A DNA stretch of 61,490 bases, counting the filler. It is 3 parts of 3 records of this genome, joined end to end, with 100 filler letters (N's around TTAATTAATTAA, not from the genome) between each part and the next. Parts side by side here need not be neighbours in the genome. Positions count along the whole stretch, not along the records: positions 31,369 to 54,287 come from SRR22947725_569; 2 more parts are not named here. The stretch is one strand, 5' to 3'. Positions 8,287 through 51,621 of this stretch are shown here, piece after piece. The translations under genes and the position numbers were made by a program. The notes below the pieces were generated by a model. That model saw nothing but the letters and a program-made list of their open reading frames with translations. It made no database searches and was not told the DNA's origin. Every line of letters starts with the position of its first letter. Position 1 is the first letter of the stretch.

Positions 8287-8289
8287 TTT

Positions 8290-8787: not shown

Positions 8788-8790
8788 TTT

Positions 8791-9243: not shown

Positions 9244-9249
9244 GTTTAA

Positions 9250-30972: not shown

Positions 30973-31268
30973 TGAGTGATAAGCAATTTGATTACTATTT
31001 AAAGGGCGAAAAAGGTGATTATGAAGTTGTTATCGGATTAGAAGTTCATGCACAAGTTTTGTCAGAGGCAAAATTATTTTCATCATCATCTACAAAATTT
31101 GGATCAGAACCTAATTCCCAAGTAAGCTTAGTAGATGCGGCAATGCCTGGGATGTTACCAGTGATAAATAAATTTTGTATTGAGCAAGCAGTTAAAACAG
31201 GACTTGGCTTAAATGCTAAAATTAACAATTTGTCAAAGTTTGATAGAAAAAATTATTTTTATGCAGAT
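30972..31268 (+). CDS. gatB: Asp/Glu-tRNA amidotransferase subunit B (3' truncated at contig end)
   Basis: [31 protein letters not shown] running into N spacer. Confidence 0.95.
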
Positions 31269-31368
31269 NNNNNNNNNNNNNNNNNNNNNNNNNNNNNNNN
31301 NNNNNNNNNNNNTTAATTAATTAANNNNNNNNNNNNNNNNNNNNNNNNNNNNNNNNNNNNNNNNNNNN
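31269..31368. other. Artificial contig-joining spacer
   Basis: 44 N + TTAATTAATTAA (stops in all six frames) + 44 N; both flanking genes truncated. Confidence 0.98.
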
Positions 31369-31477
31369 CAATTCCATTTTTACAACATTCTATTACAATT
31401 TCTGGCCCAGAAATTAAAAACATTGGGGCTGCAACTGCTGGAATGCTTAATTCATTTATAAATTGTGGTTTACTCAT
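31369..31477 (-). CDS. Nitronate monooxygenase-like flavoprotein, N-terminus only
   Basis: MSKPQFINELSIPAVAAPMFLISGPEIVIECCKNGI, typical NMO/FabK-superfamily start; cut by spacer. Confidence 0.75.
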
Positions 31478-31505
31478 TGTAAATATATTTAGTATAAATA
31501 TCCTA

Positions 31506-32960
31506 TTATTTTTTGAAATATATGTATTCGTCTTCAATTTTTTTAAATTTAAGTGAAAACATATCTTTAATGTAGTTTTGATTTAATTTCCATGGATATT
31601 TTTTCCCTTGTTTAGGAAGAAATTTTTGAGCCCTTTTTACATAGCCAGAATTTAATCCAATACTAGGCTCTATTTCTAAATTTTCATCATTTATTTTGGG
31701 AACAAATGATTTTAATTCATTTTTATCCATATGGTTTAAAATTCTACAAAAATATTCACAGACTAAATCAATTTTTAACGTCCACGAGGCGTTTGTGTAT
31801 CCAAAAACAACAGTTGCGTTAGGAATATCCTGTAACATCATACCTTTATAGCTTACTAATTTTGAAGGGTCTATTGTTTTATTATCAATTTTTATTTTAA
31901 TTCCACCCATAAATTTTAACTTTAGTCCAGTTGCAGAAATCACAAGATCTGCTTTTAATTCTTTCCCTGAATCTAATAGAATCCCATTTTTATTAAAAGA
32001 TTTTATATTTTCAGTAACTACAGTACATTTACCCTGATTAATTGACTCGAAGAGGTCATTGTCAACCACCACGCAAACTCTTTCATCCCATGGATCATAT
32101 TTTGGATTAAAATGTTTCTCTACATCAAAACCTTTTGAAAGACTATTTTTTATTTCATTTTTAATAAAAGCTTTTACTTCCTTAGGTCTTCCTTTTGAAA
32201 TTCCATAAAAGTAAATTTGTCGTATTATATATTTCCATCTAGAGATAAAATGAGCAAATTTTGAAGGTGTTAAACGAAAAAGAAAATTTGTGAATTTGTC
32301 TTTCCTAGGAAGATTCATCAAATAAGTTGGAGATCTTTGAAGCATTGTGACGTGTTTTGCTTTCTCTGACAGTGAAGGAATTAGAGTAATTGCAGTAGCA
32401 CCACTTCCAATAACAATCACATCCTTATTTAAATAATCAATATCCTTGGTCCATTTTTGAGGATGAATAAACTTACCCTTAAAATTTTCTAGACCCTTGA
32501 AATCTGGAGTATATCCGTTGTCATAATCATAATAACCAGTACAAGACATCAAGAACTTACATTTGTACTCAATTTTTTTATTTTTTTCTTTATCAATTCC
32601 AAACACTGTCCATTCTTTTTTGGATGAGTTCCAGCTAATTTCATCTATCCAATGATTGTATTTTATGTTATTTTCTAAATTGAATTTTGAACTGGTATCG
32701 TTAAGATATTTTAAAATAGTTTTTCCATCAGAAATTGTATTTTTATGTGTCCACGGACTAAATTTGTAGGCAAAAGTATACATATCAGAATCTGATCTAA
32801 TTCCAGGATACTTAAATAAATCCCATGTTCCACCTATTTTATTTCTTCCCTCCAAAACTAAAAACGATTTTTTAGGACAATTTCGTTTTAAATGGCATGC
32901 TGCTCCAATTCCTGAAATTCCAGCTCCAATTATTATTACATCAATTAATTTATTCTTCAT
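31506..32960 (-). CDS. Flavin-containing monooxygenase, EthA/AlmA (Baeyer-Villiger) family
   Basis: GAGISG, GGTWDLFKYPGIRSDSD, FKGKFIHPQKW fingerprint, GSGATA, LQRSPTY, GYTNASWTLK. Confidence 0.92.
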   Translation of the reverse strand: MKNKLIDVIIIGAGISGIGAACHLKRNCPKKSFLVLEGRNKIGGTWDLFKYPGIRSDSDMYTFAYKFSPWTHKNTISDGKTILKYLNDTSSKFNLENNIKYNHWIDEISWNSSKKEWTVFGIDKEKNKKIEYKCKFLMSCTGYYDYDNGYTPDFKGLENFKGKFIHPQKWTKDIDYLNKDVIVIGSGATAITLIPSLSEKAKHVTMLQRSPTYLMNLPRKDKFTNFLFRLTPSKFAHFISRWKYIIRQIYFYGISKGRPKEVKAFIKNEIKNSLSKGFDVEKHFNPKYDPWDERVCVVVDNDLFESINQGKCTVVTENIKSFNKNGILLDSGKELKADLVISATGLKLKFMGGIKIKIDNKTIDPSKLVSYKGMMLQDIPNATVVFGYTNASWTLKIDLVCEYFCRILNHMDKNELKSFVPKINDENLEIEPSIGLNSGYVKRAQKFLPKQGKKYPWKLNQNYIKDMFSLKFKKIEDEYIYFKK

Positions 32961-33011
32961 AAAAGATATTCAATTATAACACACTTTTAAATTTAAGTTT
33001 AAATTTTTTAT

Positions 33012-33047
33012 AAAAAAAAAGAGCAATATTTCTATTGCTCTTTTTTT
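33012..33047. terminator. Intrinsic terminator downstream of the TonB-dependent receptor
   Basis: A9-GAGCAATA-TTTC-TATTGCTC-T7, perfect hairpin with tails on both sides. Confidence 0.85.
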
Positions 33048-33061
33048 AAATTTATTTTTGT

Positions 33062-35782
33062 TTAGAAGTCACGTTTTAATGAGAACATAACTTGTCTTCC
33101 TAGTGTTGGCAGATTAGGAAGGAAGCTGTAAGCTTCATCCATCAAGTTCACAATATTCATACTAACTTTAGTTTTAGCATTTATATCATAACCTAGGTTA
33201 GCATCAACAATGTTTCTGCTTTCTACAGTACCAGAGTAAAAGTTACCCATACTTGCTTCAAAACCACCATCGTATTTATATCCTACTCCAACATTCCATT
33301 TTCTTCCATTATCATAAGCAAATCCAGCTTTAACTCTGTGTTTAGAGTGATTTAAATGCCATGATCCTACTTCAGTTAATGACCCTAAATCATCCTTTTC
33401 AAAAACAGTCTGACTAACTGTTGAATAATTTCCGTATAAAGTTAAATTATCAGTTGCTCTCCATTTCAATCCACCTTCAAATCCCCAGTAATTAACTTTT
33501 CCATAGTTTTTGTATCCAAGCATTACGTTAGTTTCTCCATTATCAGGAGCTTGATCAGTTTGTACAGTTCCAATTGCACCCATTGCAGCTAAACCATTAC
33601 CAACTGCAGCATATGTGTTTGAAAGAAGTGTTGCATAATAAGGACCGTAAACTGGACCGTAAACCGGAGTAAATGCAGATGTAAATAATGCATTTACCGC
33701 ATTACCTAAATCAGCTCCTAAGTTTGGTAGAGCTACTAATGGACTTAATTGTTCTATAGCAACGAAGTTTTCTTTTGTAGAATTATAAATATTAATACTT
33801 AATGTTGTTTTATCAGTAAGCATTCCTTTATAACCAAGCTCATAGTGTGTTTCTTTTCCTAGTTTAGCTTTGTTTCCATCCTCAAGAGGTCCAAACGGGT
33901 TTCCGTTTAGATCAAGCATAGCACCCTGTGAAAAGGCTCCAAGACCTGCAATTCCAGCAAGTGTATTTTGAGAAGTTATAAAAGGAATAAATGCTTGAAG
34001 CGGTGTACCTGCTAAAAGTGGAGCTACTGTAGCAGTTGCAACTGCATATGCCGTAGCTACAGGCATTCCGATTCCTTCATTAACTGGAAGTCCTGGAACA
34101 AACCAAGATGTTGAGGGGTTAGTAAAGGTTTGTGCTTCCTTATTTCCATAAATCCAAACATTAATACCAGGTCCTAATCTTGAAACGGCTAAATCAACAA
34201 ACATATTTAATGCACTAGGTGCTATAAACGCCTTGTTGAATGTTAACCTAAAACTTTCTCTATTATTTGGTTTGAAAACAAGTGCTGCTCTTGGTGCAAA
34301 AGAAGATTCTCCAACCTGTGGGTATTTGTCATATCTCCCTGCAAGTTGTAGATTAAACTTTTCAGAAAGTTTTGTTTTTGCAGAAAAATAAGCTCCATAA
34401 ACATTGTAACTATCTTTGTCTTCATATCTTCCAAAAGTACCAGTGTCAGTATCAAATTTTGAACTTTTATTTTCAACTCCAATTGATAAACCAGTATTAA
34501 TAGCATCAAGAGCTATTTCGTATTGTAATTGAAATTGAGATTGTTTGCTTTCAACTCCTGAAGTTACACCTGTTCTGTAATTGAATCCACGGTATTTGTC
34601 CTCTGTAGGATTAGCGGTATCTGTATAATTATATTGCATAAATAAATTTCCAGACTGAACTCTAGTTTGTATAAAGGCAGTTCTTTGTTGAGCTCTAGTT
34701 TCACCAGTTGAACTAATAAAAATATTTGCTGCAACTTCATTTATTCCTGCTACTGTTGTTATTGAAAGATTATTTGAAGGTCTGAAATAAACAGTTGCAT
34801 CAGCTCCTCTTTGAGAATTTCTTTCTTGAAATCCATCAATAGTTTTTACAACTCTTCCTGTTCTTGCGTCTTTTATTTCATTTACAAATGTTGATGTTGC
34901 AGATTCAGCTAAATCAAAATCTTCATTTTCTCCATATTTTAAATTGAATTTATAACCAAAAGTGTTATCATCATTACTAACAGCATGTCTGAAATCCATT
35001 TTAAACATGTTCATATCGAAGCTTCCTCCTTTATTAAATCCACCCGCTTGAAGATTAATACTTGTTCCCGGATGCTTAAAAGGATCTTTACTTAGGTAAT
35101 GAACCACACCAGCTCCAACACCAGGACCGTAAAGTGCAGATGCAGGACCTAATACAACTTCAACTCTTTCTATATCAAGATTACTTAAATTACTTACATC
35201 AGCATCAAAGAAGTTTATTCCATTGACATTAAGACCTCTGTAATCTAACATTACAAGAGTTGAGGTAGTAAATAAATCTACATTATCTCTTAATGCTACA
35301 CCAGTTCTGTTAGCACCGTGCTTATCAATTTGTACACCTAGCATATCATCTAAAAGTACAATTGAATTGAAAGCAGATTTGTTTTCGATTTCTTTTGCTC
35401 CTAAAATTTGAATTGATGAGGCTGCATTTATAGCTTTTTCCGCTTTTCTGGAACCAGAAATAACTACCTCGTCTAAAGCTTCCCCGGTTGACAATGATAA
35501 TGAAATAACTTGACTCTCAGAACTAACTTGTATTGTTTGTCCTTCAAAACCTAAAGAGCTTATTTCTAAAGTCCAAGGAAAGTCTAAGTCAGATGAGATA
35601 GAAAAATTACCGTCGTCATCAGAAATTACACCAGTTGTTGTTCCTTGAATAATTACATTGACACCATAAAGAGCTTCAACTCCGTCAGTAATTTTTCCTT
35701 TTACAGTTTTAGATTGAGCGTTTACCATCATAAAGGTGGCAAGCATAAAAACTAAACTTGATAAATAAAATTTAAATTTCAT
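33062..35782 (-). CDS. TonB-dependent outer-membrane receptor with N-terminal carboxypeptidase-regulatory-like domain (Bacteroidota type)
   Basis: Signal peptide, VKGKITD...GVNVII...GNFSI...LGFE domain, LDEVVISGSR TonB box, plug IERVEVVLGPASALYG, C-terminal NLMD...F. Confidence 0.93.
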   Translation of the reverse strand: MKFKFYLSSLVFMLATFMMVNAQSKTVKGKITDGVEALYGVNVIIQGTTTGVISDDDGNFSISSDLDFPWTLEISSLGFEGQTIQVSSESQVISLSLSTGEALDEVVISGSRKAEKAINAASSIQILGAKEIENKSAFNSIVLLDDMLGVQIDKHGANRTGVALRDNVDLFTTSTLVMLDYRGLNVNGINFFDADVSNLSNLDIERVEVVLGPASALYGPGVGAGVVHYLSKDPFKHPGTSINLQAGGFNKGGSFDMNMFKMDFRHAVSNDDNTFGYKFNLKYGENEDFDLAESATSTFVNEIKDARTGRVVKTIDGFQERNSQRGADATVYFRPSNNLSITTVAGINEVAANIFISSTGETRAQQRTAFIQTRVQSGNLFMQYNYTDTANPTEDKYRGFNYRTGVTSGVESKQSQFQLQYEIALDAINTGLSIGVENKSSKFDTDTGTFGRYEDKDSYNVYGAYFSAKTKLSEKFNLQLAGRYDKYPQVGESSFAPRAALVFKPNNRESFRLTFNKAFIAPSALNMFVDLAVSRLGPGINVWIYGNKEAQTFTNPSTSWFVPGLPVNEGIGMPVATAYAVATATVAPLLAGTPLQAFIPFITSQNTLAGIAGLGAFSQGAMLDLNGNPFGPLEDGNKAKLGKETHYELGYKGMLTDKTTLSINIYNSTKENFVAIEQLSPLVALPNLGADLGNAVNALFTSAFTPVYGPVYGPYYATLLSNTYAAVGNGLAAMGAIGTVQTDQAPDNGETNVMLGYKNYGKVNYWGFEGGLKWRATDNLTLYGNYSTVSQTVFEKDDLGSLTEVGSWHLNHSKHRVKAGFAYDNGRKWNVGVGYKYDGGFEASMGNFYSGTVESRNIVDANLGYDINAKTKVSMNIVNLMDEAYSFLPNLPTLGRQVMFSLKRDF

Positions 35783-35831
35783 AATTGTTTTGTTTTGTTG
35801 TTATTAATTTGATTAATATCTGTTACATATA

Positions 35832-36854
35832 TTACGAATAATGTAATATGTGTGGCAAAATAATACTATTTATTCGATTTTTAAAATTTTTATTAAAATC
35901 ATGTCCCATTCCTTTAATTATTACTAACCTGGATCCGTGTATCAAAGAAGCTAGTTTTTTTGAGTGACTTGCTTTTACAAGAGGATCGTCTGATCCGTGA
36001 ATTAATAGAGTAGGGACCTTAATAGTTTTTAGTTTTCTATAACGTGAACCAGAGTTTTTTATTGCTCTTCTATGTTGATCAAAAGCTCTCTTATTAAAAC
36101 CGTTTCTAAATTTAATTTCATACAAAGTTTTTTGAATTTGTTTTTCATAATTAAAAACGTAATTATCATTTCCAGAAAAAAGGTGGTCAAGTTTGAAATG
36201 AAATTTTAATACTTTATCAATGTTTCTTTCTTTATTTCTGTAAGAAAAAATTAGTTTTTTTAACTGATTTAATCTTTTTGAATCTGGTTTCTCAGCTTCT
36301 GGATCTAAAAGAAAACCAGTGGACATTAAGTTTGTCATGGTTAAGATTTTCTCAGGATGATTTATTGCCAATATTTGTGCTATCATTCCGCCTGTAGAGT
36401 AACCAATTACATGAAACTTTTTAATCATTAGGTGATTAGTAACAGCCAATGCATCTCTCGCCATTTCTTCAAGATTATAAGAATTTGATTTTGACCAATC
36501 TTTAATCCAGTCGGATTCGCCTAAACCTCTATTGTCAAATCTAATAACTCTAAATCCGTTTTTAAGAATAGTTCTGATCATTTGATCTGGCCATTGAATC
36601 ATCGTCTCAGCTGCTCCATTGATCAGTAAAATTGTTGCTTTTGGATTTTCAATATTACACAGATCTTCGTAAAATATTTTTACATCAATATTTTTTGCAT
36701 AACCAGTTTTACCCTCTATAAAAACAGGAATCTGTTTTGACTTTGTAATAGAAATTAATTTATCAATATATGAATCATTTAATTCATCTTTTAACAAATT
36801 ATTAAAATAAAAACCTAGTATGAAACTGGTAACAATTAAAATAAAAATTATCAT
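35832..36854 (-). CDS. Membrane-anchored alpha/beta hydrolase (esterase/lipase-like)
   Basis: FDNRGLGES, GYSTGG nucleophile elbow, HGSDDPLV, GMGH; N-terminal hydrophobic anchor from ATG 36854. Confidence 0.88.
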   Translation of the reverse strand: MIIFILIVTSFILGFYFNNLLKDELNDSYIDKLISITKSKQIPVFIEGKTGYAKNIDVKIFYEDLCNIENPKATILLINGAAETMIQWPDQMIRTILKNGFRVIRFDNRGLGESDWIKDWSKSNSYNLEEMARDALAVTNHLMIKKFHVIGYSTGGMIAQILAINHPEKILTMTNLMSTGFLLDPEAEKPDSKRLNQLKKLIFSYRNKERNIDKVLKFHFKLDHLFSGNDNYVFNYEKQIQKTLYEIKFRNGFNKRAFDQHRRAIKNSGSRYRKLKTIKVPTLLIHGSDDPLVKASHSKKLASLIHGSRLVIIKGMGHDFNKNFKNRINSIILPHILHYS

Positions 36855-36859
36855 TTGTT

Positions 36860-38524
36860 CTATTCCCAAATAACGTCTTCTTTGTTTTTCAACCAATTGT
36901 TGTATTGGTCAGAGAATTTTTCATCAATTTTTGATCTTTTTATCTTTAAAGTAGGAGTGGTCATGCCATTTTCTGGGAGCCAGTCTTCTTGAACAAAAAT
37001 AACTTTGGACATTTTTTTGTAGTTGTCTAGACTACTGTTCACTTTTTCTAAAATATTAGAAATTTTAGAATTTGTAACTTCTTTATTATTTTTTGCGATT
37101 TCAGTAGGTACAGCTAGAAGAAGAGGTTGATCGCAATTTAGACCAACTACACATACTTGAGAAAATTCTGAAACATTACCAAAATAAGCTTCCAAAACAC
37201 CAGGCTCAATGTATTTACCTTTTGAAGTTTTAAACATGTCCTTGATTCTCCCGGTTATGAACAAAAACCCATCATCATCAATATGTCCTTTGTCTCCAGT
37301 ATGTAACCATCCGTCTTTCAAAGTTTCATTAGTCACTTCTTCATTTTTATAATAGCAACTCAATATAAAAGGTCCTTTCATTAAAATTTCACCTTGATCA
37401 CTTATTTTTAAGTCAACTCCAGGTGTGGGTCTTCCAACAGATCCTCTTCCAAGAGGTTGGTAAGGATCTAAGTTTGTACATGTAGCACAATTTTCAGTCA
37501 TTCCATATCCGTTTGTAATGAAAATACCAAGACTTCTATACCAGTCTAATAATTCAAGCGGCATTGCTGCAGCACCCGTTACTAAAGCTTTTGCCTTGGA
37601 CATACCCAGTGCACCCTTCAATTTTCTTTTTATTAACCAAGAAATAATAGGAATTTTTAATAGTTTATCAAGCTTTGCTTGAGGCATTTTCATTAATATT
37701 TTTTCTTGAAACTTCATATAAATTCTTGGAACTCCTTGAAAAGCTGTAGGTTGTGTGTCATTTAAATTTTGAGCAAATGTTTCTAGTGATTCAACAAAGG
37801 AAATAGTTCCTCCATATCTGAAAGCAACATGCTCGATAACAACTCTCTCAAAAATATGGTTTAAGGGCATATAGGATATAAAACGATTTTTACCACTTAA
37901 ATCAACTTTTAGCGGGTTTCCATCTTCAGTTATTCTTTTTGTATTGAAAAGGGTTTCATAAGTTAATACAACTCCTTTAGGGTCTCCTGTTGTGCCGGAC
38001 GTGAAGATCACAGTCCATATATCTTTAAGGTTTGGTCTAAAATCCTCAGTTTGAGCATCAAATTTATTAATAAATTCATGCCATTGATGACCAACCTCGA
38101 CTTTTGAATGATCTTTGTATTGAGGGAAAGCTATAATAGGCATTTCTAAATCAACACCTTTTTTCATTTCTTCCCAATTTTCTAACTTTCCAACAAATAA
38201 AGCTTTAACATCTCCAAAAGTTAGAAGATTTTTAATTTCTTTAGAATTAAGAGTTGGAAAAAAAGGAACAGATATGTAACCTGCCATAGAAATTGCTAGA
38301 TCTGCAATTACCCATTCTCTACAATTTTTAGAAACCAATCCAATATGACTGTCTTTTTCTAAACCTAAACTTTTTAATCCGTTAGAAAGTTTTCGAGCCA
38401 TTAAACCAACTTCATTCCAAGTGTAAGTTTCCCATAAGTTTCCAAATGGTTGTTTTAAAAAAGGCTTGTCCGCTAATTCTTTTTCCCATTTATAAAAAGG
38501 AAAATCAAATAATTCGTTGTTCAT
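36860..38524 (-). CDS. Long-chain acyl-CoA synthetase (FadD family)
   Basis: FTSGTTGDPKGV, GYGMTE, GWLHTGDKG, ITGRIKD, TPTLKIKR. Confidence 0.93.
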   Translation of the reverse strand: MNNELFDFPFYKWEKELADKPFLKQPFGNLWETYTWNEVGLMARKLSNGLKSLGLEKDSHIGLVSKNCREWVIADLAISMAGYISVPFFPTLNSKEIKNLLTFGDVKALFVGKLENWEEMKKGVDLEMPIIAFPQYKDHSKVEVGHQWHEFINKFDAQTEDFRPNLKDIWTVIFTSGTTGDPKGVVLTYETLFNTKRITEDGNPLKVDLSGKNRFISYMPLNHIFERVVIEHVAFRYGGTISFVESLETFAQNLNDTQPTAFQGVPRIYMKFQEKILMKMPQAKLDKLLKIPIISWLIKRKLKGALGMSKAKALVTGAAAMPLELLDWYRSLGIFITNGYGMTENCATCTNLDPYQPLGRGSVGRPTPGVDLKISDQGEILMKGPFILSCYYKNEEVTNETLKDGWLHTGDKGHIDDDGFLFITGRIKDMFKTSKGKYIEPGVLEAYFGNVSEFSQVCVVGLNCDQPLLLAVPTEIAKNNKEVTNSKISNILEKVNSSLDNYKKMSKVIFVQEDWLPENGMTTPTLKIKRSKIDEKFSDQYNNWLKNKEDVIWE

Positions 38525-38582
38525 ATTGTTTTTGTTTTGTTGTAATAATTTATTGAAATTAAGGTTTTTTTATTAAAACACA

Positions 38583-38611
38583 TTTATAAATAAATATCCA
38601 ATATTTGTCAA
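38583..38611 (-). promoter_or_regulatory. Candidate promoter upstream of the acyl-CoA synthetase
   Basis: Minus strand TTGACA-17-TATAAA; AT-rich context makes it uncertain. Confidence 0.3.
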
Positions 38612-38632
38612 GTTAATTAAAAAATAAATGTT

Positions 38633-40033: not shown

Positions 40034-40185
40034 GAATTGTAAATATATTTTTAAGATACAATTAAATAAATATTTTTAAATCGCTAAAATTTGTTTTAAT
40101 ATCCATAAACTAATGGGCAACATATTTTTCATTAATTTTACATTTAATCAACTTTATATAAATATCTAAATAAAATGATTGTTAA

Positions 40186-41784: not shown

Positions 41785-41793
41785 ATATTTATT

Positions 41794-42606
41794 ATGAAAT
41801 ATTTTAATGAAAACGATGTTAAAAATATAAAGTCATACAATTTTGATTTTATAGAATTTGAAGAGTCAAATCACGTTTTTACTTTAACATTAAATCGTCC
41901 TAAAAAGAAAAACGCTCTGAATCCTCAAATGATTAATGAAATAGCATTTGCCTTTCAATATGTTTCATGCTCTAATAGTGTTAGAGCTTTATTATTAAAA
42001 TCAAATGGAGATGTTTTTTGTTCAGGATTAGATCTTAATGCTGTAAATGGTGACATTGAAAAAAATAATTCGACCGTACCAGAAGCTAATTCAAAAATAT
42101 TAATTGGAGAACTATTTAATAAGTTATATAAACCAAAAATCTGTCAGTTGGAAGGAGACGTTTATGCTGGTGGTTTTTTATTAATTGCTGGATGTAATTA
42201 TGTTGTTTCAAAAGATGGTTTAAAATTGGGCCTTCCAGAAGTAAAAAGAGGAATTTTCCCAATGCAAGTTATGGAATCTCTTTCTAAAGTTATTTCCTTA
42301 AGAAATGTAATTGATTGGTGTGTTAGAGGCTATAACTTGGATGTTAAAACTGCTCACAGTTGGGGATTGATTTCTAAAATAGTAGACCAAGCTAATATTG
42401 AATCTGATGTCTCAAAATGGTTACAAGAGGTTACAAGGAATTCTCCTTTTGCCATAAAACATGGATTAGAAGCAATGGATAATATTAAATCTAGTGAGTC
42501 AAATCATGAATATCTTTTGCAAATGTTAGAATTGGTTTTGAAATCTGACGATGCAAAAGAAGGAATTGCTGCTTTTAAAGAAAAAAGAAATCCTAACTGG
42601 AAATAA
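41794..42606 (+). CDS. Crotonase-family enoyl-CoA hydratase (AtuE/LiuC-like, single catalytic Glu)
   Basis: LNRPKKKNAL, FCSGLDL, AGGFLL, GLPEVKRGIFP, EGIAAFKEKRNPNW. Confidence 0.88.
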   Translation: MKYFNENDVKNIKSYNFDFIEFEESNHVFTLTLNRPKKKNALNPQMINEIAFAFQYVSCSNSVRALLLKSNGDVFCSGLDLNAVNGDIEKNNSTVPEANSKILIGELFNKLYKPKICQLEGDVYAGGFLLIAGCNYVVSKDGLKLGLPEVKRGIFPMQVMESLSKVISLRNVIDWCVRGYNLDVKTAHSWGLISKIVDQANIESDVSKWLQEVTRNSPFAIKHGLEAMDNIKSSESNHEYLLQMLELVLKSDDAKEGIAAFKEKRNPNWK

Positions 42607-42628
42607 TAATTTTATTTTTTGAGTTTGT

Positions 42629-42640
42629 TATGCTTGCATA
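42629..42640. promoter_or_regulatory. Palindromic candidate operator TATGC-TT-GCATA
   Basis: Perfect GC-containing inverted repeat in an AT-rich 109-bp intergenic region, 75 bp upstream of the beta-oxidation gene run. Confidence 0.5.
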
Positions 42641-42715
42641 GTATTTTTTTATATTTTAGTATTTTAATACTAATTCACTAATTGTTTTTAATATCAAATA
42701 ATAAAACTCATAAAA

Positions 42716-43711
42716 ATGTTAAAAAATAAAGTTGTTAAATTGTCATCTCGACCTTCAGGTTTTCCATCTGAAGATACATGGGTTCATGAAACTCAAGACG
42801 TAAGAGAAATAAATGATGGAGAAATTCTTTTGAAAAATTTATATGTTTCTTTTGATCCAGCAATGAGAGGATGGCTAAATGAAGCTAGATCGTATATTCC
42901 TCCAGTTCAAATAGGTGAAGTCATGAGAGCTGGAACTATTGGAGAAGTTGTAGACTCAAAAAACCCAAATTTTAATAAAGGCGATGTTCTCTCAGGATGG
43001 GGTGGAGTTCAAGAATATTCCATTTCTGATGGAAAGGGATACTTTAAGGTGCCAAGTACTAAAATTCCATTACCAACTTTTATTGGAACTTTAGGAATGC
43101 CAGGAATGACTGCATACTTTGGTATTCTTGAAGTTGGTAAAATAAAAGAAGGTGATACCGTATTAGTGTCAGCTGCTGCAGGTGCTGTTGGAAGTATAGT
43201 AGGTCAAATTGCAAAAATTAAAGGATGTAAGGTTGTCGGTATTGCTGGTGGTAAGGAAAAATGTGATTATGTCATTAATGAACTTGGTTTTGATGGTTGT
43301 GTTGACTATAAAAATGAAAGTATTAAAAGAGGGATTAAAAGAGAGTGTCCTGATGGAATTGACGTTTATTTTGATAATGTTGGGGGTGAAATTTTAGATG
43401 CTGCTCTTGTCTTTTTAAGAATGGGAGCTAGAATAGTAGTTTGTGGAGCTATTTCACAATACAACGAAATGTCAGCCAAAGGCCCAGATAATTATTTGTC
43501 TTTACTTGTAAATAGGGCTTCCATGAAAGGAATGGTTGTTTTTGATTACGCAAAAAATTATCCTACTGCAACCAAAGAAATGACTCAATGGATTTTGGAT
43601 GGTACTTTAAAATCAAAAGAAGATATTTTCGAAGGAATTGAAAACTTTTATGAGGTTTTTAAAAAATTATTTAATGGAGAAAAAAAAGGTAAATTAATTT
43701 TAAAAATATAA
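42716..43711 (+). CDS. NADP-dependent alkenal/enone reductase (prostaglandin reductase/CurA-like MDR)
   Basis: [43 protein letters not shown]. Confidence 0.9.
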
Positions 43712-43713
43712 TT

Positions 43714-44895
43714 ATGAGAGATGCATTAATCGTTTCTACAGCAAGAACTCCTTTAACAAAATCATACAGAGGAACATTTAACAATACAACTGCTCCAACT
43801 ATGGCAGGTTGGGCAATTGAGGAAGCAGTTAAAAGATCAGGAGTTGATCCAGAAAAAGTTGATGATGTTATAATGGGTGCAGCTTTGCAACAAGGAACAC
43901 AACATTGTAATGTTGCTAGAAATTCTGCATTAGCTGCAGGTCTTCCTGTAACTGTCAGCGGAATGACATTAGACAGACAATGTTCATCTGGAATGATGGC
44001 TATTGCCACTGCTGCTAAACAAATTATAAGCGATGGAATGGACGTTGCTGTTGGAGGCGGATTAGATTCAATTAGTTTGGTTCAAACTGAAAAAATGAAT
44101 CTGGATAGGTGGGTTGATAAAAAATTAATTGAAAAACATAAACATATTTACATGCCAATGCTTAAAACTGCTGAAGTAGTAGCTGATAGGTATAATATTT
44201 CAAGAGAATCTCAAGATGAATATTCTCTTCAAAGTCAGTTAAGAACTGCAAAAGCACAGCAAGAAGGAAAATTTGATGATGAAATTGTATCCGTTACAAC
44301 AACTATGGGAGTTATGGATAAAATAACGAAAGAGATTTCATTTGTTGAAAAGACTACTTCAAAAGACGAGTGCAATAGACCTAACACAACTATTGAAGGA
44401 TTAAGTTCACTTAATCCAGTTGTTGAAGGAGGATCAATTACGGCTGGAAATGCTAGTCAGCTTTCTGATGGTGCATCTGCTTGTGTTTTGATGGAATCAA
44501 GTATTGCAGCAAAGCATAATGTTACACCACTTGGAATTTATAGGGGAATTGCAGTTGCCGGATGTGAACCAGACGAAATGGGTATTGGACCAATATATGC
44601 TGTTCCAAAATTGTTAAAACAAAATGGTCTTAAAATGAGTGACATCGGACTCTGGGAGCTTAATGAAGCATTTGCTGTTCAGGTTTTATATTGTAGAGAT
44701 ATACTTGGAATTCCTAATGAAATTTTAAATGTTAATGGAGGCTCTATTTCAATAGGACATCCTTATGGAATGAGTGGGTCTAGAATGGTTGGTCATGCAC
44801 TAATTGAGGGTAAAAGAAGAGGCGCTAAATATGTAATTTCAACAATGTGTGTTGGTGGAGGAATGGGAGCTGCAGGTCTATTTGAAGTTATATAA
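43714..44895 (+). CDS. Acetyl-CoA C-acyltransferase (thiolase, PimB-like)
   Basis: [33 protein letters not shown]. Confidence 0.95.
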
Positions 44896-44933
44896 ATTAA
44901 CACTTAATAAATTTTAATTAAAAAAATATAAAT

Positions 44934-45674
44934 ATGAAAAGATTAGAAGGTCAAGTTGCCATTGTTACAGGTGGAGCGCGTGGAATAGGTAAAGGAATCT
45001 GTGAAGTTTTTTGCAGAGAAGGAGCAACTGTAGCGTTATGGGATGTTTTGGACGGAACTGAAACAGTAAATGAAATAACACAAAATGGTGGGAAAATATT
45101 TTTTCAAAAAGTTGATGTAACAGATCAAAGTTCTGTAGATAATGCTATTGAAGAGATCATTAAACAGCATGGTAAAATTGAGATTTTAATTAATAATGCA
45201 GGAATCATTAGAGACAAATCATTCTTAAAAATGTCAGAAGAAGAATGGGATTCAGTAATTAATGTAAATCTTAAATCTCTGTACGTAGTAACAAGATCTG
45301 TAGTTCCACATATGAAAGAAAATGGATACGGAAGAATTGTTTCAGCTTCTTCTATTAATGGAACAGCAGGTGCTTTTGGACAAACTAATTATTGTGCTAC
45401 TAAAGCTGGAATTTCTGGTTTTACAAGAGCACTTTGTAAAGAGGTTGGTAGACACGGAATTACTGCAAATGCAGTAGCACCAGGTTTTGTAAAATCTGTA
45501 ATGTCCGACAGTATGCCTGAAGAAATTATTAAGGGCGCAGTTAAAATGATTCCAGTGGGTAGAATTGGTACACCTGAAGATATGGGTCATGCTTATTTGT
45601 TTTTAGCATCTAAAGAATCAGGATTTGTAAGTGGAATAACTCTACATGCGAATGGAGGATCAATGCCAATGTAA
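44934..45674 (+). CDS. SDR, 3-oxoacyl/3-hydroxyacyl-CoA oxidoreductase (FabG-like)
   Basis: TGGARGIG, NNAGI, GQTNYCATK, VAPGF; Asp after beta-2. Confidence 0.9.
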   Translation: MKRLEGQVAIVTGGARGIGKGICEVFCREGATVALWDVLDGTETVNEITQNGGKIFFQKVDVTDQSSVDNAIEEIIKQHGKIEILINNAGIIRDKSFLKMSEEEWDSVINVNLKSLYVVTRSVVPHMKENGYGRIVSASSINGTAGAFGQTNYCATKAGISGFTRALCKEVGRHGITANAVAPGFVKSVMSDSMPEEIIKGAVKMIPVGRIGTPEDMGHAYLFLASKESGFVSGITLHANGGSMPM

Positions 45675-45691
45675 AATTTAAAATTATAATT

Positions 45692-46168
45692 ATGAATAAT
45701 AACGAAGCGTATAAAACTAGTTTCAAGAACTTAGATGAGTTAAACAGTTCTGTTGGAAAAGAACTTGGAGTTTCTGATTGGATTGAAATCACTCAAGAAA
45801 ATATAAATATTTTTGCTAAAATTACTCAGGACGAACAATGGATTCATATAGATAAAGAAAAATCAGAAAAACATTCTCCGTATAAAACAACAATTGCACA
45901 TGGTTTTATGATATTATCTCTAGCCTCCAGATTTTCTTATGATACTTTAAATTTAGAAAGTGTTAAAATGGGAGTCAATTATGGAGTTGACAGGGTTCGT
46001 TTTACCAGTGCTACTCCCTCTGGTGGATTTATTAGAGGAAGAGTTTCTCTACTAGAGTGCGAAAAGAAAGATGGAAGTGCGAAATACAAATTAGGAATTA
46101 CTGTAGAATTAAATGGTCAAGAAAAACCAGTTTGTGTTGCTGAAACCTTAGCTATTGCTTACGAATAA
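45692..46168 (+). CDS. MaoC-family (R)-specific enoyl-CoA hydratase
   Basis: FAKITQDEQWIH (D-x4-H), TIAHGF, NYGVDRVRF hot-dog motifs. Confidence 0.9.
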   Translation: MNNNEAYKTSFKNLDELNSSVGKELGVSDWIEITQENINIFAKITQDEQWIHIDKEKSEKHSPYKTTIAHGFMILSLASRFSYDTLNLESVKMGVNYGVDRVRFTSATPSGGFIRGRVSLLECEKKDGSAKYKLGITVELNGQEKPVCVAETLAIAYE

Positions 46169-46178
46169 AATTAATATT

Positions 46179-46961
46179 ATGGAGAATAAAGCAGTTTTGT
46201 TAGATATTTTTGAAGGTATTGCAGTTATAACTTTAAATAGACCAGAAAGATATAATGCAGTTAATCAAGATTTAATTGAAGGAATTAATTATGTATTTTC
46301 TGTTATAAAAAATGACGATAATATAAGGGCTGTAGTTTTAACTGGAAATGGAAAAGGCTTTTGTTCAGGAGCAGATTTGACAACTATTGGAACTTTATCT
46401 CCAGAAGATTCTAGAGATTATATAATTGATAATTATAAACCAATTTTAAATAATTTTTTAAGTCTAAGGAAACCAATAATAGGAGCAATAAATGGTACTG
46501 CAGCAGGTGTTGGTGCTGCTTTTGCTTTAGCTTGTGATTTTAGAGTTATGAGTAAAGAAAGTGCACTATTGTATGCTTTTATTAATATTGGATTAGGACC
46601 TGATGGAGGTGCTAGTTGGTTGCTTTCAAGACAAGTTGGGTATAGTAAGGCCTTAGAGATTGCTACAGGAGGTAAAAGAGTATTGGGTGAAGAATGTTTT
46701 AAATTGGGTTTAACTAATAAATTAGTTGAATCAAAAGAAATCATTGATGTTGCAAAAAGTTGGGCTATTGAGTTATCAAAAAAACCTACGATTGGAATAG
46801 GTATTACAAAACAAGACATGATTTTTTCTTTAAATAATGATTTGTTAAGTACTATAGAATTTGAAGCTAAAGAACAAGTTGCAGCATTTTATAGTGAAGA
46901 TTTAAAGGAAGGTGTAACTGCTTTTTTAGAAAAAAGAAAAGCTAATTTTAAAGGTAAATAA
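46179..46961 (+). CDS. Crotonase-family isomerase/hydratase (PaaG-like)
   Basis: LNRPERYNA, FCSGADL, GVGAAFALAC, AFINIGLGPDGG; start at ATG 46179. Confidence 0.87.
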   Translation: MENKAVLLDIFEGIAVITLNRPERYNAVNQDLIEGINYVFSVIKNDDNIRAVVLTGNGKGFCSGADLTTIGTLSPEDSRDYIIDNYKPILNNFLSLRKPIIGAINGTAAGVGAAFALACDFRVMSKESALLYAFINIGLGPDGGASWLLSRQVGYSKALEIATGGKRVLGEECFKLGLTNKLVESKEIIDVAKSWAIELSKKPTIGIGITKQDMIFSLNNDLLSTIEFEAKEQVAAFYSEDLKEGVTAFLEKRKANFKGK

Positions 46962-46969
46962 TAAACGGA

Positions 46970-48163
46970 ATGGAAACACAAGTTAAGACAGATTTAACAA
47001 GTTTTAGGTTAGAAACAAGAAAATGGTTGGAAGAAAATTGTCCAGCGTCCATGCAAGAGCCTATAACCGATGCAAAACAATTGTATTGGGGAGGTAGAAA
47101 TGGAGAATTTAGTTCTAAGGATCAAGAAATATGGTTCAATAAAATGTTTGATAAAAAATGGATTGTTCCTTATTGGGAATCTAAATATGGAGGAGGAGGA
47201 TTAAATCCAAAACAAAATAACATTTTAAATCAGGAAATGTCTAGGTTGGGATGTAGAAAGCCTCATATCAATTTTGGTATATCAATGTTGGGTCCTGCTT
47301 TATTAAAGTTTGCTTCTGAAGAACAAAAAATTTATTATTTGAATCAGATTTGCAAAGGAGAAATCAGATGGGTTCAAGGCTATAGTGAACCTAACGCAGG
47401 AAGTGATTTAGCTAATCTTCAAACTAAGGCTGAAGATAAAGGTGATCATTTTTTAGTTACTGGATCTAAAGTATGGACATCTTATGGCGATAAAGGAGAT
47501 TTTATATTTTGTTTAGTTAGAACAAGTACTGAATCAAAACACACAGGGATAAGTTTTTTACTTATTGATATGAACTCAGATGGAGTATCTACAAGACCGA
47601 TAAAGTTAATAAGTGGAAAATCACCATTTGCTGAAACATTTTTTGATTCTGTTAAAGTTCCAAAAAAGAATTTAGTTGGTACTCTTAATGATGGTTGGAC
47701 TATTGCTAAGTATTTATTGACTCATGAGCGTCAAATGATTGGAGGGATAGGTGATACAGATAAGAAAAAAACATTAAGTGAAGTCGCAATTGATTCTATT
47801 GGAGTTACTGATAAATTATTATCAAATGCTTCAATTAGATCAAAGATTGCAAATCTTGAAATGAATGAAAAAATTTTCGAATTAACAATTCAACGAGCTT
47901 TAGACGAACACAAAGCAGGAAATAATTCAGGTGCAGTATCTTCATTTTTTAAATACTATGGGACTGAACTTGCTATGCAGAAAGAGGAATTAAGATTAGA
48001 GGTCAATGGATTTAATTCAACTGAATGGACTAGTGAAGAATCTAATAATGGTAGAGAGGCTAGATATTTTAATAGATCAAAAGGTCATTCAATTGAAGGA
48101 GGAACACATGAAGTTCAGTTAAATATAATAGCAAAAAGAGTCCTTGGGCTCCCATCAAAATAA
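46970..48163 (+). CDS. Acyl-CoA dehydrogenase, large/catalytic subunit (PimC/ChsE-type)
   Basis: WVQGYSEPNAGSDLA, GSKVWTS, LTHER, SIEGGTHEVQLNII. Confidence 0.92.
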   Translation: METQVKTDLTSFRLETRKWLEENCPASMQEPITDAKQLYWGGRNGEFSSKDQEIWFNKMFDKKWIVPYWESKYGGGGLNPKQNNILNQEMSRLGCRKPHINFGISMLGPALLKFASEEQKIYYLNQICKGEIRWVQGYSEPNAGSDLANLQTKAEDKGDHFLVTGSKVWTSYGDKGDFIFCLVRTSTESKHTGISFLLIDMNSDGVSTRPIKLISGKSPFAETFFDSVKVPKKNLVGTLNDGWTIAKYLLTHERQMIGGIGDTDKKKTLSEVAIDSIGVTDKLLSNASIRSKIANLEMNEKIFELTIQRALDEHKAGNNSGAVSSFFKYYGTELAMQKEELRLEVNGFNSTEWTSEESNNGREARYFNRSKGHSIEGGTHEVQLNIIAKRVLGLPSK

Positions 48164-48168
48164 TAATT

Positions 48169-49293
48169 ATGGCACTTGTAATTAATGAAGAGCAAAATAT
48201 GCTCAAGTCTTCAGCAAAAGAATTATTAGATTTAAAATCTCCAATTTCTCATATGAGAGAATTAAGAGACGACAATTATAGTCAATTCGATGTTGATTTA
48301 TGGAAAGAAATGGTTGAAATGGGATGGACGGCTTTAATAATTCCTGAAGAATATAATGGACTTAATTTTGGTTATGTTGGATTAGGTCAAGTTTTAGAAG
48401 AAATGGGAAGAAATCTTACAGTTTCACCAATGATATCCACTGTTTTGGTTTCAACAACATTAATTTCTTTTTCAAAAAATGAAGTTTTAAAAAGTAAACT
48501 CTTTGATGAAATAATGAATGGAAAAAAACTTTGTTCACTGGCTCATGAAGAAACTTCTCATCACAACCCAAATATTAACTTATCAATTATTTCAAAAAAC
48601 GATCAGAAGTTTATTTTGAATGGCAAAAAGAGGTTTGTAATTGATGGATCAATTTCAGATTACTTAATCATTTCAGCTAATAATGAATCCTCTGGTAAAT
48701 TAGAGTTGATTATTTTAGATTCTAAATCAAAAGGGATTACTTTCAACAATAAAGTTCATATGGACTCTAAAAGTTATTCTGATATTTCATTTAATAATGT
48801 TGAGTTTTCTAATAATGATTTTTTATCATCCAATGATGATGGTCAAAAACTTTTAAGCAAAACTCTTGATATAGCTTGTATTGGATTGGCAGCTGAAATG
48901 CTTGGAAATATTCAACAAGCATTTGAAATGACAATGCAATATCTGAAGGAAAGAGAACAGTTTGGAGTAAAAATCGGTTCTTTTCAGGCTCTTCAACACA
49001 GATCATCAATAATGTTTGGGGAAATTGAATTATGTAAGTCAATAGTTTTAAAAGCATTACAAGCTATTGATAAAGATGACGAGAATTTATCTGAATTGGC
49101 AAGTTTAGCCAAATCAAAGTTAGGATTAACATCAAAATTAGTTACTAATGAAGCGGTTCAAATGCATGGTGGAATAGGAATGACAGACGATTCTGATATT
49201 GGTTTTTTTCTAAAAAGAACAAGAGTTACCCAAAGAATTTTTGGAGATTCAAATTACCATTTAGATAGAGTTGCTAAAATAAATAACTATTAG
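48169..49293 (+). CDS. Acyl-CoA dehydrogenase, small/partner subunit (PimD/ChsE-type)
   Basis: REQFGVKIGSFQALQH, QMHGGIGMT, FGD; lacks EPxxGSD and terminal GT.E motifs. Confidence 0.9.
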   Translation: MALVINEEQNMLKSSAKELLDLKSPISHMRELRDDNYSQFDVDLWKEMVEMGWTALIIPEEYNGLNFGYVGLGQVLEEMGRNLTVSPMISTVLVSTTLISFSKNEVLKSKLFDEIMNGKKLCSLAHEETSHHNPNINLSIISKNDQKFILNGKKRFVIDGSISDYLIISANNESSGKLELIILDSKSKGITFNNKVHMDSKSYSDISFNNVEFSNNDFLSSNDDGQKLLSKTLDIACIGLAAEMLGNIQQAFEMTMQYLKEREQFGVKIGSFQALQHRSSIMFGEIELCKSIVLKALQAIDKDDENLSELASLAKSKLGLTSKLVTNEAVQMHGGIGMTDDSDIGFFLKRTRVTQRIFGDSNYHLDRVAKINNY

Positions 49294-50190: not shown

Positions 50191-50199
50191 GATTTAAAG

Positions 50200-51261: not shown

Positions 51262-51332
51262 ATTATAACAATTATTAAGTATTTTGTTATAAATATAACA
51301 ATTTAAAGTCATAAATTTCAACTTTTATTTTC

Positions 51333-51566: not shown

Positions 51567-51621
51567 TTTACTTCACTCTATTATTTTATATTTACTAACT
51601 TGTTTAAATAAATTTAAAAGT

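Follow-up and report, generated by a model that had tools for sequence, protein, structure and literature searches.

Loci in which a TonB-dependent receptor (TBDR) stands beside lipid-degrading enzymes were reported from SAR86 in 2012 and interpreted as serving high-affinity lipid uptake (Dupont et al., PMC3358033), and excerpts of a 2024 SAR86 isolate study put their emphasis on beta-oxidation, fadE26/27 homologues and TonB-dependent transporters (PMC11582366); the concept of a TBDR lipid locus therefore already exists. Here we analyse a locus at 31369-49293 of a 61,490-nucleotide stretch of DNA (hereafter the window, filler included; positions 31,369 to 54,287 come from SRR22947725_569), in which a TBDR gene is accompanied by genes of acyl-CoA metabolism. 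In related genomes the linkage of this TBDR to acyl-CoA genes is more than chance. With moderate confidence, and judging by gene families, we read the locus as a conserved TBDR-linked catabolic cluster of pelagic small-genome Flavobacteriaceae that would serve an external lipid-like compound, one with a methyl-branched acyl chain or a chain otherwise too bulky to enter ordinary beta-oxidation.

As in the SAR86 loci, the receptor lies beside lipid-catabolic enzymes in a streamlined pelagic bacterium, and those SAR86 genomes also list nitropropane-dioxygenase-type genes, many acyl-CoA dehydrogenases (ACADs) and enoyl-CoA hydratases. SAR86 belongs to a different phylum, however, and the loci named in that text carry patatin, a rhodanese/beta-lactamase-family protein and a flavin oxidoreductase, with no carboxyltransferase (CT) plus full beta-oxidation set. 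The SusC/SusD polysaccharide utilisation loci (PULs) offer a second comparison: here too a TonB importer with a CarboxypepD_reg-like N-terminus is co-localised with enzymes for its presumed substrate and with an inner-membrane transporter of the major facilitator superfamily (MFS). Unlike in PULs, the barrel fails the SusC/RagA model, and the locus is without SusD, a carbohydrate-active enzyme (CAZyme), a hybrid two-component regulator or an extracytoplasmic function (ECF)/anti-sigma regulator.

The Pseudomonas Atu and Liu clusters, as far as they are set out in the excerpted text of PMC4673880, share with our locus a crotonase gene placed after a beta subunit of the same lineage, the presence of a ligase, an ACAD and a short-chain dehydrogenase/reductase (SDR) within the cluster, and an adjoining acetoacetate-CoA ligase. 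They differ from it in that here no alpha subunit was found, the gate residue of the CT is Tyr, the lyase lies outside the locus, a TBDR is attached and the ACAD is encoded by two genes.

An ACAD pair combined with a MaoC-type hydratase, an SDR and a thiolase is a set for 2-methyl-branched or bulky acyl-CoAs. The locus has this set in common with the actinobacterial cholesterol side-chain pathway and with peroxisomal MFE-2. With the actinobacterial pathway the likeness does not go beyond protein families (147 bits to 4x28_A; NCBIfam scores well below their cut-offs), and its ring-degrading genes, P450 and aldolase are missing among the annotated neighbours.

In literature searches of listings and abstracts we found neither a flavobacterial description of such a locus, which supplements may nevertheless contain, nor one of an alpha-less, Tyr-gated beta subunit of the 3-methylcrotonyl-CoA carboxylase (MCC)/geranyl-CoA carboxylase (GCC) lineage. 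Bloom papers on clades of the MAG-121220-bin8 type (PMC8319329, PMC6794258) do not speak of lipids in the excerpted main text. The initial annotation knew of no described locus with this architecture; the general idea of TBDR loci with lipid enzymes has been published for SAR86 (PMC3358033).

Genes of the locus and their linkage to the receptor

Genes in the window were called from a listing of open reading frames (ORFs) together with Pfam and NCBIfam scans, and solved-structure searches supplied the closest characterised relatives. All genes named by the initial annotation were found where it had placed them, in two arms that diverge from 40034-40185:

31369-31477, minus strand: 5' fragment (about 36 codons) of a FabK/nitronate monooxygenase (NMO)-like flavin mononucleotide (FMN) reductase; its translation, MSKPQFINELSIPAVAAPMF..., enters the N run
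31506-32960, minus strand: Baeyer-Villiger-type flavin monooxygenase (BVMO), 484 aa (Pfam FMO-like, Pyr_redox_3)
33014-33047, no strand: hairpin with a 15-bp stem and A/T runs on its flanks, between the TBDR stop and the BVMO start; matches a terminator-like consensus, putative terminator
33062-35782, minus strand: TBDR, 906 aa, with signal peptide, CarboxypepD_reg-like domain (CarbopepD_reg_2), Plug and barrel (Pfam); N-terminus MKFKFYLSSLVFMLATFMMVNAQ
35832-36896, minus strand: alpha/beta-fold serine hydrolase, probable esterase, 354 aa from a TTG or 340 aa from an ATG at 36854 (Abhydrolase_1, 111 bits)
36860-38524, minus strand: acyl-CoA ligase (FadD-like), 554 aa (AMP-binding, 223 bits)
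38633-40033, minus strand: MFS_2 (GPH-family) inner-membrane transporter, 466 aa (MFS_2, 233 bits)
40034-40185, no strand: AT-rich divergent intergenic region of 152 bp that separates the minus and plus arms
40186-41784, plus strand: CT, beta subunit, 532 aa (Carboxyl_trans, 386 bits)
41794-42606, plus strand: crotonase-1, a crotonase-fold enoyl-CoA hydratase, 10 bp after the CT (ECH_1, 137 bits)
42716-43711, plus strand: NADPH-dependent medium-chain ene-reductase of the CurA / LTB4 12-HD type (ADH_N_2 and ADH_zinc_N)
43714-44895, plus strand: 3-ketoacyl-CoA thiolase (Thiolase_N/C; TIGR01930, 415 vs cut-off 241)
44934-45674, plus strand: SDR, probable 3-hydroxyacyl-CoA dehydrogenase (adh_short_C2; below or near FabG-type cut-offs)
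45692-46168, plus strand: MaoC-like (R-specific) enoyl-CoA hydratase (MaoC_dehydratas)
46155-46961, plus strand: second crotonase (ECH2), PaaG-like, hydratase or isomerase (ECH_1, 190 bits)
46970-48163, plus strand: ACADa, first acyl-CoA dehydrogenase of a pair (ACAD domains; PimC-large, 264 vs cut-off 624)
48169-49293, plus strand: ACADb, second of the pair and last plus-arm gene (ACAD domains; PimD-small, 187 vs 653; IpdE2, 131 vs 450)

To place these genes among their relatives, 14 receptor homologues were aligned and one genome per species was scanned, which gave 152 pattern matches, 73 confirmed relatives and 67 loci. Proteins of the window and of L007 (a locus of genome G002 on a 914-kb contig of another metagenome-assembled genome (MAG), with a receptor 100% identical to that of the window) were mapped onto the loci by tblastn, an orthologue being a match of at least 40% identity over at least half the length. 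Counts refer to 30 loci, those with a receptor that matches at 35% identity or more along most of its length; the 10-kb limit on the flanks lowers the counts for the distal plus-arm genes.

At least one acyl-CoA gene lies beside the TBDR in 28 of the 30 loci, the exceptions being L008, a 5-kb contig with hydrolase, TBDR and BVMO only, and L032, to which we return below. Orthologues were found of the NMO-like reductase in 26 loci (76-100% identity), of the ligase in 25, the hydrolase in 23, the CT in 21, the SDR in 19 (70-93% identical, rearranged loci included), crotonase-1 and the ene-reductase in 18 each, the acetoacetate-CoA ligase of L007 in 17, the MFS transporter in 16, the thiolase in 14, the MaoC in 10 and the BVMO in 8; ACADa stands 10-15 kb from the TBDR in four of the five genomes checked. 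The constant neighbours of the TBDR are the FabK/NMO-like reductase, the ligase, the CT with its crotonase, the ene-reductase, SDR, MaoC, two-gene ACAD and thiolase; the hydrolase, MFS and BVMO genes are accessory. The co-occurrence with ligase, BVMO and CT genes that had been proposed for this TBDR clade was borne out by this comparison, with the BVMO as an accessory gene.

Because the genomes are relatives and the locus counts are not independent events, distinct gene orders make the stronger argument for linkage, and the predicted co-conservation of receptor and acyl-CoA genes survives at least four of them. In L029-L031 and L033, SDR, MaoC, ECH2, ACADa and ACADb follow the receptor on the same strand, and in L034 and L036 a set of NMO, reductase, crotonase, CT and ligase diverges from it. 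Receptors of L082-L084, L087 and L089 are just 29-34% identical, yet stand beside ligase/CT or SDR/MaoC/ACAD genes. In L033 the set is extended by a zinc alcohol dehydrogenase and an aldehyde dehydrogenase. Even sampling of the family at 201 genera yielded the receptor at E<=1e-100 in 7 genomes, with more than 40% identity in G001 only; five of the eight receptor places in this sample (G088, G109, G115, G186 and G138; TBDR 29-34%) have linked acyl-CoA genes. TBDR matches of at most 33% identity outside the group (Rhodothermales, KSB1 and others) stand alone. As a separate observation, L031, from a MAG labelled Saprospiraceae, holds an HpaB-family flavin monooxygenase of 510 aa (7529-9061) between its MaoC and ACAD genes.

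RNA libraries contain the locus as well. Of the words sampled from 33000-42900, 40-49% occur in twelve RNA-labelled runs that stem from several studies, and contigs of four RNA runs (four studies) cover, at 90% likeness, all 30 bins and every gene. Contigs X5 (43998-49461, 6 differences) and X10 (43975-49489, 10 differences), from two studies, bridge thiolase to ACADb at 99.8% identity, another at that identity (40807-42638) spans the 3' part of the CT and crotonase-1, and others cover most of the ligase. These contigs report presence only, not levels, strands or transcript ends, and their depth (lower over 49351-50682 in X5 and X10, with low bins at 36031-36696 and 38695-39360) cannot rank genes and was not used. 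Both X5 and X10 end some 170-200 bp downstream of ACADb, which hints at most weakly at a transcript end. A sigma-70 promoter scan was uninformative (87 sites vs 97 expected by shuffling), and of five terminator-like sites (7.2 expected) the 33014-33047 hairpin alone was retained. We claim no operator in the 152-bp divergent region, which has just weak AT-rich inverted repeats, and there is no regulator gene in the window locus, the divergent region included. ORFs of about 210 aa adjoin the MFS gene in L013, L029 and L033, and both of those in L033 are TetR-family (Pfam).

The receptor is not of the SusC type. It scores 73.6 bits against the SusC/RagA model TIGR04056 (cut-off 368.25), over residues 25-227 only, and its neighbours are the alpha/beta hydrolase and the BVMO, with no SusD partner; a solved-structure search gave no close or informative relative. 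In keeping with the initial annotation of a TBDR locus free of CAZymes and SusD, Pfam finds neither within 31369-49293, nor in L007 downstream. A database protein of 824 aa on a 2.5-kb contig (P0067) has thiolase domains fused to a TBDR barrel, and is probably a gene-calling artefact or else a variant in which thiolase and receptor abut.

The hydrolase best fits the NCBIfam macrolide esterase model (157 vs cut-off 420) and has the nucleophile motif GYSTGG. An N-terminal hydrophobic helix in six of six orthologues inspected marks it as membrane-anchored. A periplasm-facing orientation was considered on the positive-inside rule, but the orthologues put positive charges on opposite sides of the helix. 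In L016 the hydrolase is split into ORFs of 177 and 164 aa (8891-9927), which fits its being dispensable. The ligase scores 236 against a long-chain fatty-acid-CoA ligase subfamily (cut-off 476), with FadD13 as its best solved match, and the transporter is closest to MFSD2A lysophosphatidylcholine symporters (E 3e-15, residues 11-157 only), followed by MelB (E 7.6e-7).

Of the two flavoproteins, the NMO-like one is whole in L007 (325 aa, Pfam NMO). Its closest solved relatives are FabK enoyl-ACP reductases (E 4.5e-22), nitronate monooxygenases reaching E 5e-10 or worse, which makes it more probably an enoyl-thioester reductase. The BVMO has two GxGxxG Rossmann motifs (IIGAGISG and VIGSGATA) and the stretch FKGKFIHPQKW, which agrees with FxGxxxHxxxW, the type I BVMO fingerprint; its best solved matches are type I BVMOs (E 1.1e-30, aligned over residues 4-218 only). 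Only in the closest relatives does its orthologue come after the receptor, with an NMO or another SDR taking that place elsewhere, and in the window a hairpin separates receptor and BVMO; the BVMO of the window subclade therefore appears to have been inserted recently between the TBDR and NMO genes. A paralogue of 26-30% identity lies between MFS and ligase in six other loci. The initial annotation had paired BVMO and esterase in a methyl-ketone step; both genes are present, as accessory genes.

Model scores in the plus arm are modest. Crotonase-1 reaches 156 against EchA19 (cut-off 400) and 113 against gamma-carboxygeranoyl-CoA hydratase (cut-off 426), with no informative relative in the solved-structure search; the labels AtuE-like, given to it, and AtuC-type, given to the CT, are interpretations. 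The second crotonase scores 216 against PRK05981 (cut-off 351), 193 against PaaG (cut-off 345) and 162 bits against EchA19 (cut-off 400), and the ene-reductase 384 against curcumin reductase (cut-off 440). ACADa and ACADb are adjacent, diverged and 5 bp apart, as a two-gene ACAD would be. The best solved match of ACADa is 4x28_A (E 8e-42, 147 bits), then 6wy9/6wy8; 4x28 is a heterotetrameric steroid side-chain ACAD and 6wy9/6wy8 are heteromeric ACADs of steroid catabolism. This agrees with the heteromeric ACAD predicted at the outset.

The carboxyltransferase gate and the alpha subunit

The CT belongs to the MCC/GCC lineage, with 451 bits to the PaMCC beta subunit, 432 to human MCCC2 and 425 to the GCC beta subunit, and about 200 or less to betas of the propionyl-CoA carboxylase (PCC) type. 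GCC and MCC are told apart, in the excerpted text of Jurado et al. 2015 (PMC4673880), by Gly162 in GCC vs Phe191 in MCC and by a 3-residue insertion just before the MCC Phe. Our CT aligns without a gap to the GCC beta subunit 5ikl_B across the gate site and both MCCs show an extra PDR relative to it, hence it has no MCC insertion; its Tyr160 faces the Gly of GCC and the Phe of MCC (the number 191 fits the human chain in our alignment). An aromatic gate residue is thus present and the MCC-type 3-residue insertion absent. Tyr predominates at the gate of the 29 CTs examined from related loci, 23 having it against 5 with Ala and 1 with Ile.

Gate residue and alpha subunit go together. All six CTs with Ala or Ile adjoin an alpha gene of 658-668 aa, recognised in L081 and L082 by Biotin_carb_N, CPSase_L_D2, Biotin_carb_C and Biotin_lipoyl domains (Pfam) and in the other four by tblastn at 47-48% identity. 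The alpha gene sits between CT and crotonase and completes a CT-alpha-crotonase module, the order of liuB/liuD/liuC in Pseudomonas. None of the 23 Tyr-type loci had a match to an alpha gene, L014 and L017 having the CT at a contig edge with one side not visible. At genome level, G001, G002, G115 and G203-G206 have one Biotin_carb_C match each, located in a frame of some 450 aa, and no biotin carboxylase match at all was found in G207; G064 and G011 have a second Biotin_carb_C match, of 661-663 aa, beside the CT. The frame of about 450 aa in G002 adjoins a 168-aa biotinyl-domain frame, and a second small biotinyl frame has 136 aa. This genome encodes two long CTs, the locus CT, which is its sole MCC/GCC-type one, and a 517-aa PCC/MmdA-like one. 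The AtuA family had no match among annotated neighbours, no genome-wide search having been made.

These patterns suggest an ancestral beta-alpha-crotonase module with an open, GCC-like gate, from which the window lineage would have lost alpha and closed the gate with Tyr. Most likely, as far as sequence can tell, the CT acts on a short 3-methyl-2-enoyl-CoA of the 3-methylcrotonyl-CoA type, borrowing the housekeeping biotin carboxylase and carrier in trans. Its carboxylase function may also be changed or lost. Tyr-type CTs are 84-98% identical across loci whose receptors are 35-88% identical, and such high conservation relative to the receptor argues that they are functional. Carboxylation of long isoprenoid-CoAs in the window genome appears doubtful because the CT has Tyr where geranyl-CoA needs Gly. 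The Atu-type carboxyltransferase of the initial annotation therefore stands as to lineage and the lacking MCC insertion, and fails at the gate residue and the alpha subunit. Of the 201 sampled genera, 8 have a CT of this type at E<=1e-150, a threshold that may exclude ordinary MCC betas, and their genomes all measure 1.3-2.2 Mb.

Locus edges, carriers and genomic setting

The start at 31369 is an assembly edge and no biological boundary, since the scaffold linker at 31269-31368 (an N run, TTAATTAATTAA and an N run) joins two contigs there. Left of it lies a different contig with a ribosomal operon, gatA and a gatB cut after 118 codons (30960-31268). L007 spans this gap, and past the whole NMO-like gene its order is a convergent acetoacetate-CoA ligase (ACS2), DUF4345, an FA_hydroxylase-family gene, an SDR, an MBL-fold gene, DUF1214, DUF1254 and a haloalkane-dehalogenase-family hydrolase. 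The ACS2 scores above its NCBIfam cut-offs (737 vs 639 and 610 vs 521), and an FA_hydroxylase (sterol desaturase family) gene lies near the locus in 14 of the 30 loci. Genes of the block from DUF4345 to the haloalkane dehalogenase (L007 17152-22573) were found in 9-14 of the 30; its MBL-fold protein best fits GntH, below the cut-off, and its haloalkane-dehalogenase-subfamily hydrolase passes the NCBIfam cut-off (292 vs 265).

G002 (L092) shares the right boundary, ACADb being followed there too by a convergent HGLS gene and saccharopine dehydrogenases. Beyond it the window holds:

49294-52833: convergent HGLS-family (2-oxoadipate dioxygenase/decarboxylase) gene and two genes of the saccharopine dehydrogenase family, which may form a lysine catabolic set adjoining the locus
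52830-53639: 3-keto-disaccharide-hydrolase-family protein
53698-54198: 166-aa protein without a family match, with a 50%-identical homologue directly after the divergent TBDR in L083 (G115)

In none of the 30 related loci did genes of the HGLS/saccharopine-dehydrogenase set turn up within 10 kb of the receptor. Identity to other assemblies is uneven along the window. In the closest genome, G001, contig C70 has 99% DNA identity to 36418-48877 and contig C21 just 87% to 31583-36544; in L007 the receptor is 100%, crotonase-1 88% and the BVMO 92% identical to the window. This mosaic points to strain mixing in the assemblies or to recombination.

Receptor homologues and related loci carry labels of Flavobacteriaceae or Bacteroidetes MAGs, with genomes of 1.2-2.2 Mb, and two carriers are labelled BACL29 MAG-121220-bin8. 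In excerpts of the bloom literature the GTDB genus MAG-121220-bin8 is equated with a species of the NS4 clade (PMC8319329) and listed among small-genome Flavobacteriaceae of North Sea blooms (PMC6794258). A SAR86 origin of the window, considered in view of its G+C of about 30% and the small genome, was rejected, the named TBDR homologues and L007 with its 100%-identical receptor being labelled Flavobacteriaceae. Two loci labelled Gammaproteobacteria (L029) and SAR86 (L059) had raised the idea of horizontal transfer to these groups. They share 95% DNA identity with each other and 81-95% with contigs labelled Flavobacterium or Flavobacteriaceae (78-91% against L030 and L033), so their labels are probably binning labels, the taxonomy of some bins seeming untrustworthy, and are no evidence that SAR86 has the locus; the transfer was rejected.

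G002 also has a canonical beta-oxidation system, encoded on a different contig by an 804-aa FadB-like gene and a gene for a 603-aa ACAD, which makes the locus an extra, specialised set. The surrounding 55-kb stretch is acyl-CoA-rich: it includes an HMG-CoA (3-hydroxy-3-methylglutaryl-CoA) lyase-like (HMGL-like) gene, the second CT, two further ACADs and another NMO, and it also holds an APH-family gene, a TetR gene and sulfatases. Two neighbouring ORFs in this genome (240 and 290 aa, L091 85-1744) match the N- and C-terminal halves of a sulfatase and may be a broken gene; they lie near a 774-aa sulfatase, the second NMO/FabK-like gene and the TetR gene.

A candidate pathway and its alternatives

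What we observe directly is gene families, linkage, the gate residue, the absence of alpha and presence in RNA libraries, and every biochemical step that follows is read from family membership. The TBDR would carry the compound over the outer membrane. Where present, the membrane-anchored hydrolase would remove an ester-linked group and the MFSD2A-like transporter would move the amphipathic product over the inner membrane, after which the FadD-like ligase would form the CoA thioester. The two-gene ACAD, MaoC, SDR and thiolase could then run a beta-oxidation cycle resembling that of MFE-2 or of steroid side chains, suited to 2-methyl-branched or bulky chains, with the second crotonase as a putative isomerase and the CurA-type and FabK/NMO-like reductases saturating C=C bonds. 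Remaining 3-methyl-enoyl-CoA may be processed by the CT and crotonase-1 in a bypass of the Liu/Atu type, a route that would be completed by an HMG-CoA-lyase-like enzyme encoded elsewhere and by the acetoacetate-CoA ligase beside the NMO, which would reactivate acetoacetate. In the window subclade the BVMO could add a ketone-to-ester step.

A branched or bulky lipid substrate is plausible, phytol being one candidate. Iso-branched fatty acids that end in isovaleryl- or 3-methylcrotonyl-CoA would fit the catabolic cluster that we favour, and the acetoacetate-CoA ligase beside the locus fits an end route of the 3-methylcrotonyl type.

Several observations weigh against this reading. A fused alpha subunit was found in none of eight genomes with a Tyr-type CT, some of the genomes searched being incomplete (G001 80%, G115 88%), and carboxylation by the CT would therefore rest on partnership in trans. 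The only small HMGL-like gene of G002 lies about 44 kb away and scores 163 against the HMG-CoA lyase model (cut-off 246). No enzyme passes an NCBIfam equivalog cut-off that names a branched-lipid substrate, and the RNA evidence consists of contigs only, in which DNA carry-over is possible. In L032 (Microscillaceae label) a TBDR 38% identical to ours has full flanks and no linked genes, and in G064 (L079) a CT-alpha pair stands with MaoC, SDR and reductase but no TBDR within 10 kb, so that the plus-arm chemistry can stand alone. FadL-type channels, not TBDRs, are the known route for free fatty acids. The self-contained system of the initial annotation could not be upheld, as no biotin-carboxylase alpha was found in the locus or the related genomes, no regulator lies in the locus, and the HMGL-like gene is distant.

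A more ambitious version, which we hold tentatively as a possibility, would make this a true "lipid utilisation locus", in which a TonB importer for scarce isoprenoid-type or sterol-side-chain lipids of phytoplankton is joined to branched-chain beta-oxidation and the alpha-less, Tyr-gated CT works with housekeeping AccC and biotin carboxyl carrier protein (BCCP).

The locus could instead consist of two separate modules that travel together: the plus arm with the acetoacetate-CoA ligase as a Liu-type route for leucine/isovalerate and branched-chain acyl-CoAs, and the minus arm as unrelated uptake and activation. We consider this unlikely. In its favour, Tyr160 blocks the pocket that geranyl-CoA requires, the locus CT is the only MCC/GCC-type CT of G002, and the ACS2 passes the cut-offs for an acetoacetate-CoA ligase. 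Within 45 kb there are also an HMG-CoA-lyase-like gene, a second CT and further ACADs, and in G064 the CT-alpha pair stands with MaoC, SDR and reductase and has no TBDR within 10 kb. Against two modules, the TBDR linkage is kept through at least four rearrangements, some on the same strand (L031, L033) and some with CT and ligase abutting the TBDR (L034, L036, L082-L084); moreover, the presence of this CT type in 8 of 201 genera, at the E<=1e-150 that may exclude ordinary MCC betas, is unlike that of a family-wide housekeeping gene.

Importing an intact or lyso polar membrane lipid with ordinary or polyunsaturated algal chains would give the minus arm a ready role, the esterase freeing the acyl chain, the MFS importing the lysolipid and the crotonases and reductases acting as auxiliaries for unsaturated fatty acids. 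The transporter is indeed closest to lysophosphatidylcholine symporters, a match limited to residues 11-157, and the serine hydrolase is membrane-anchored. Excerpts of the SAR86 papers state that TBDRs typically import compounds >600 Da (PMC3358033) and interpret loci of such kind as polar-lipid loci (PMC3358033, PMC11582366), and sulfatase genes lie nearby in G002. We nonetheless judge this explanation improbable: the MFS is absent from 14 and the hydrolase from 7 of the 30 loci, hence neither is core, the CT and ACAD pair have no role in the oxidation of straight or polyunsaturated chains, and a canonical FadB system exists elsewhere in the genome.

Actinobacterial cholesterol oxidation includes carboxylation of C24-branched side chains, and by its logic the locus might degrade a sterol alkyl side chain or another polycyclic or alicyclic carboxylic acid. 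ACADa is closest to 4x28_A and 6wy9/6wy8, heteromeric ACADs of steroid pathways, both crotonases match EchA19 best or well (156 and 162 bits, cut-off 400), the FabK/NMO-like reductase and a FadD3-family match resemble members of the KstR2 regulon, and a sterol-desaturase-family gene is nearby in 14 of 30 loci. Excerpts of the 2024 SAR86 paper also name fadE26/27 homologues (PMC11582366). All these scores are far under equivalog cut-offs, and ring-opening genes, a P450 and an aldolase are not among the annotated neighbours (no genome-wide search was made), which leaves this explanation highly improbable.

A locus for phytol or its C18-isoprenoid ketone, with Atu-type carboxylation of long isoprenoid-CoAs and BVMO-esterase cleavage of a methyl ketone, is barely credible even though six non-Tyr-gate relatives (Ala at the gate) with an adjacent alpha look GCC-like, the CT has no MCC-type insertion, BVMO and hydrolase are present and L033 adds alcohol and aldehyde dehydrogenases, since Tyr occupies the gate in the window genome as in 22 other loci, searches of the locus and of the eight Tyr-type genomes turned up no alpha subunit, the BVMO orthologue occurs in just 8 of 30 loci and no result separates phytol, the substrate suggested by the initial annotation, from other branched lipids.

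Marine Flavobacteriaceae are modelled almost wholly as degraders of glycans and proteins, and bloom proteomics reads their TonB transporters as markers of glycan use. A TBDR locus for lipid-like carbon that is conserved and apparently transcribed would widen the substrate range of abundant small-genome clades, and it would caution against treating each flavobacterial TBDR as a polysaccharide reporter. If it is true that an alpha-less, Tyr-gated CT works with AccC and BCCP, this would be a carboxylase architecture not described for the lineage, and the link between the gate residue (Tyr vs Ala/Ile) and the loss of alpha raises the question of how MCC/GCC-type carboxylases work, or change their function, in streamlined genomes.

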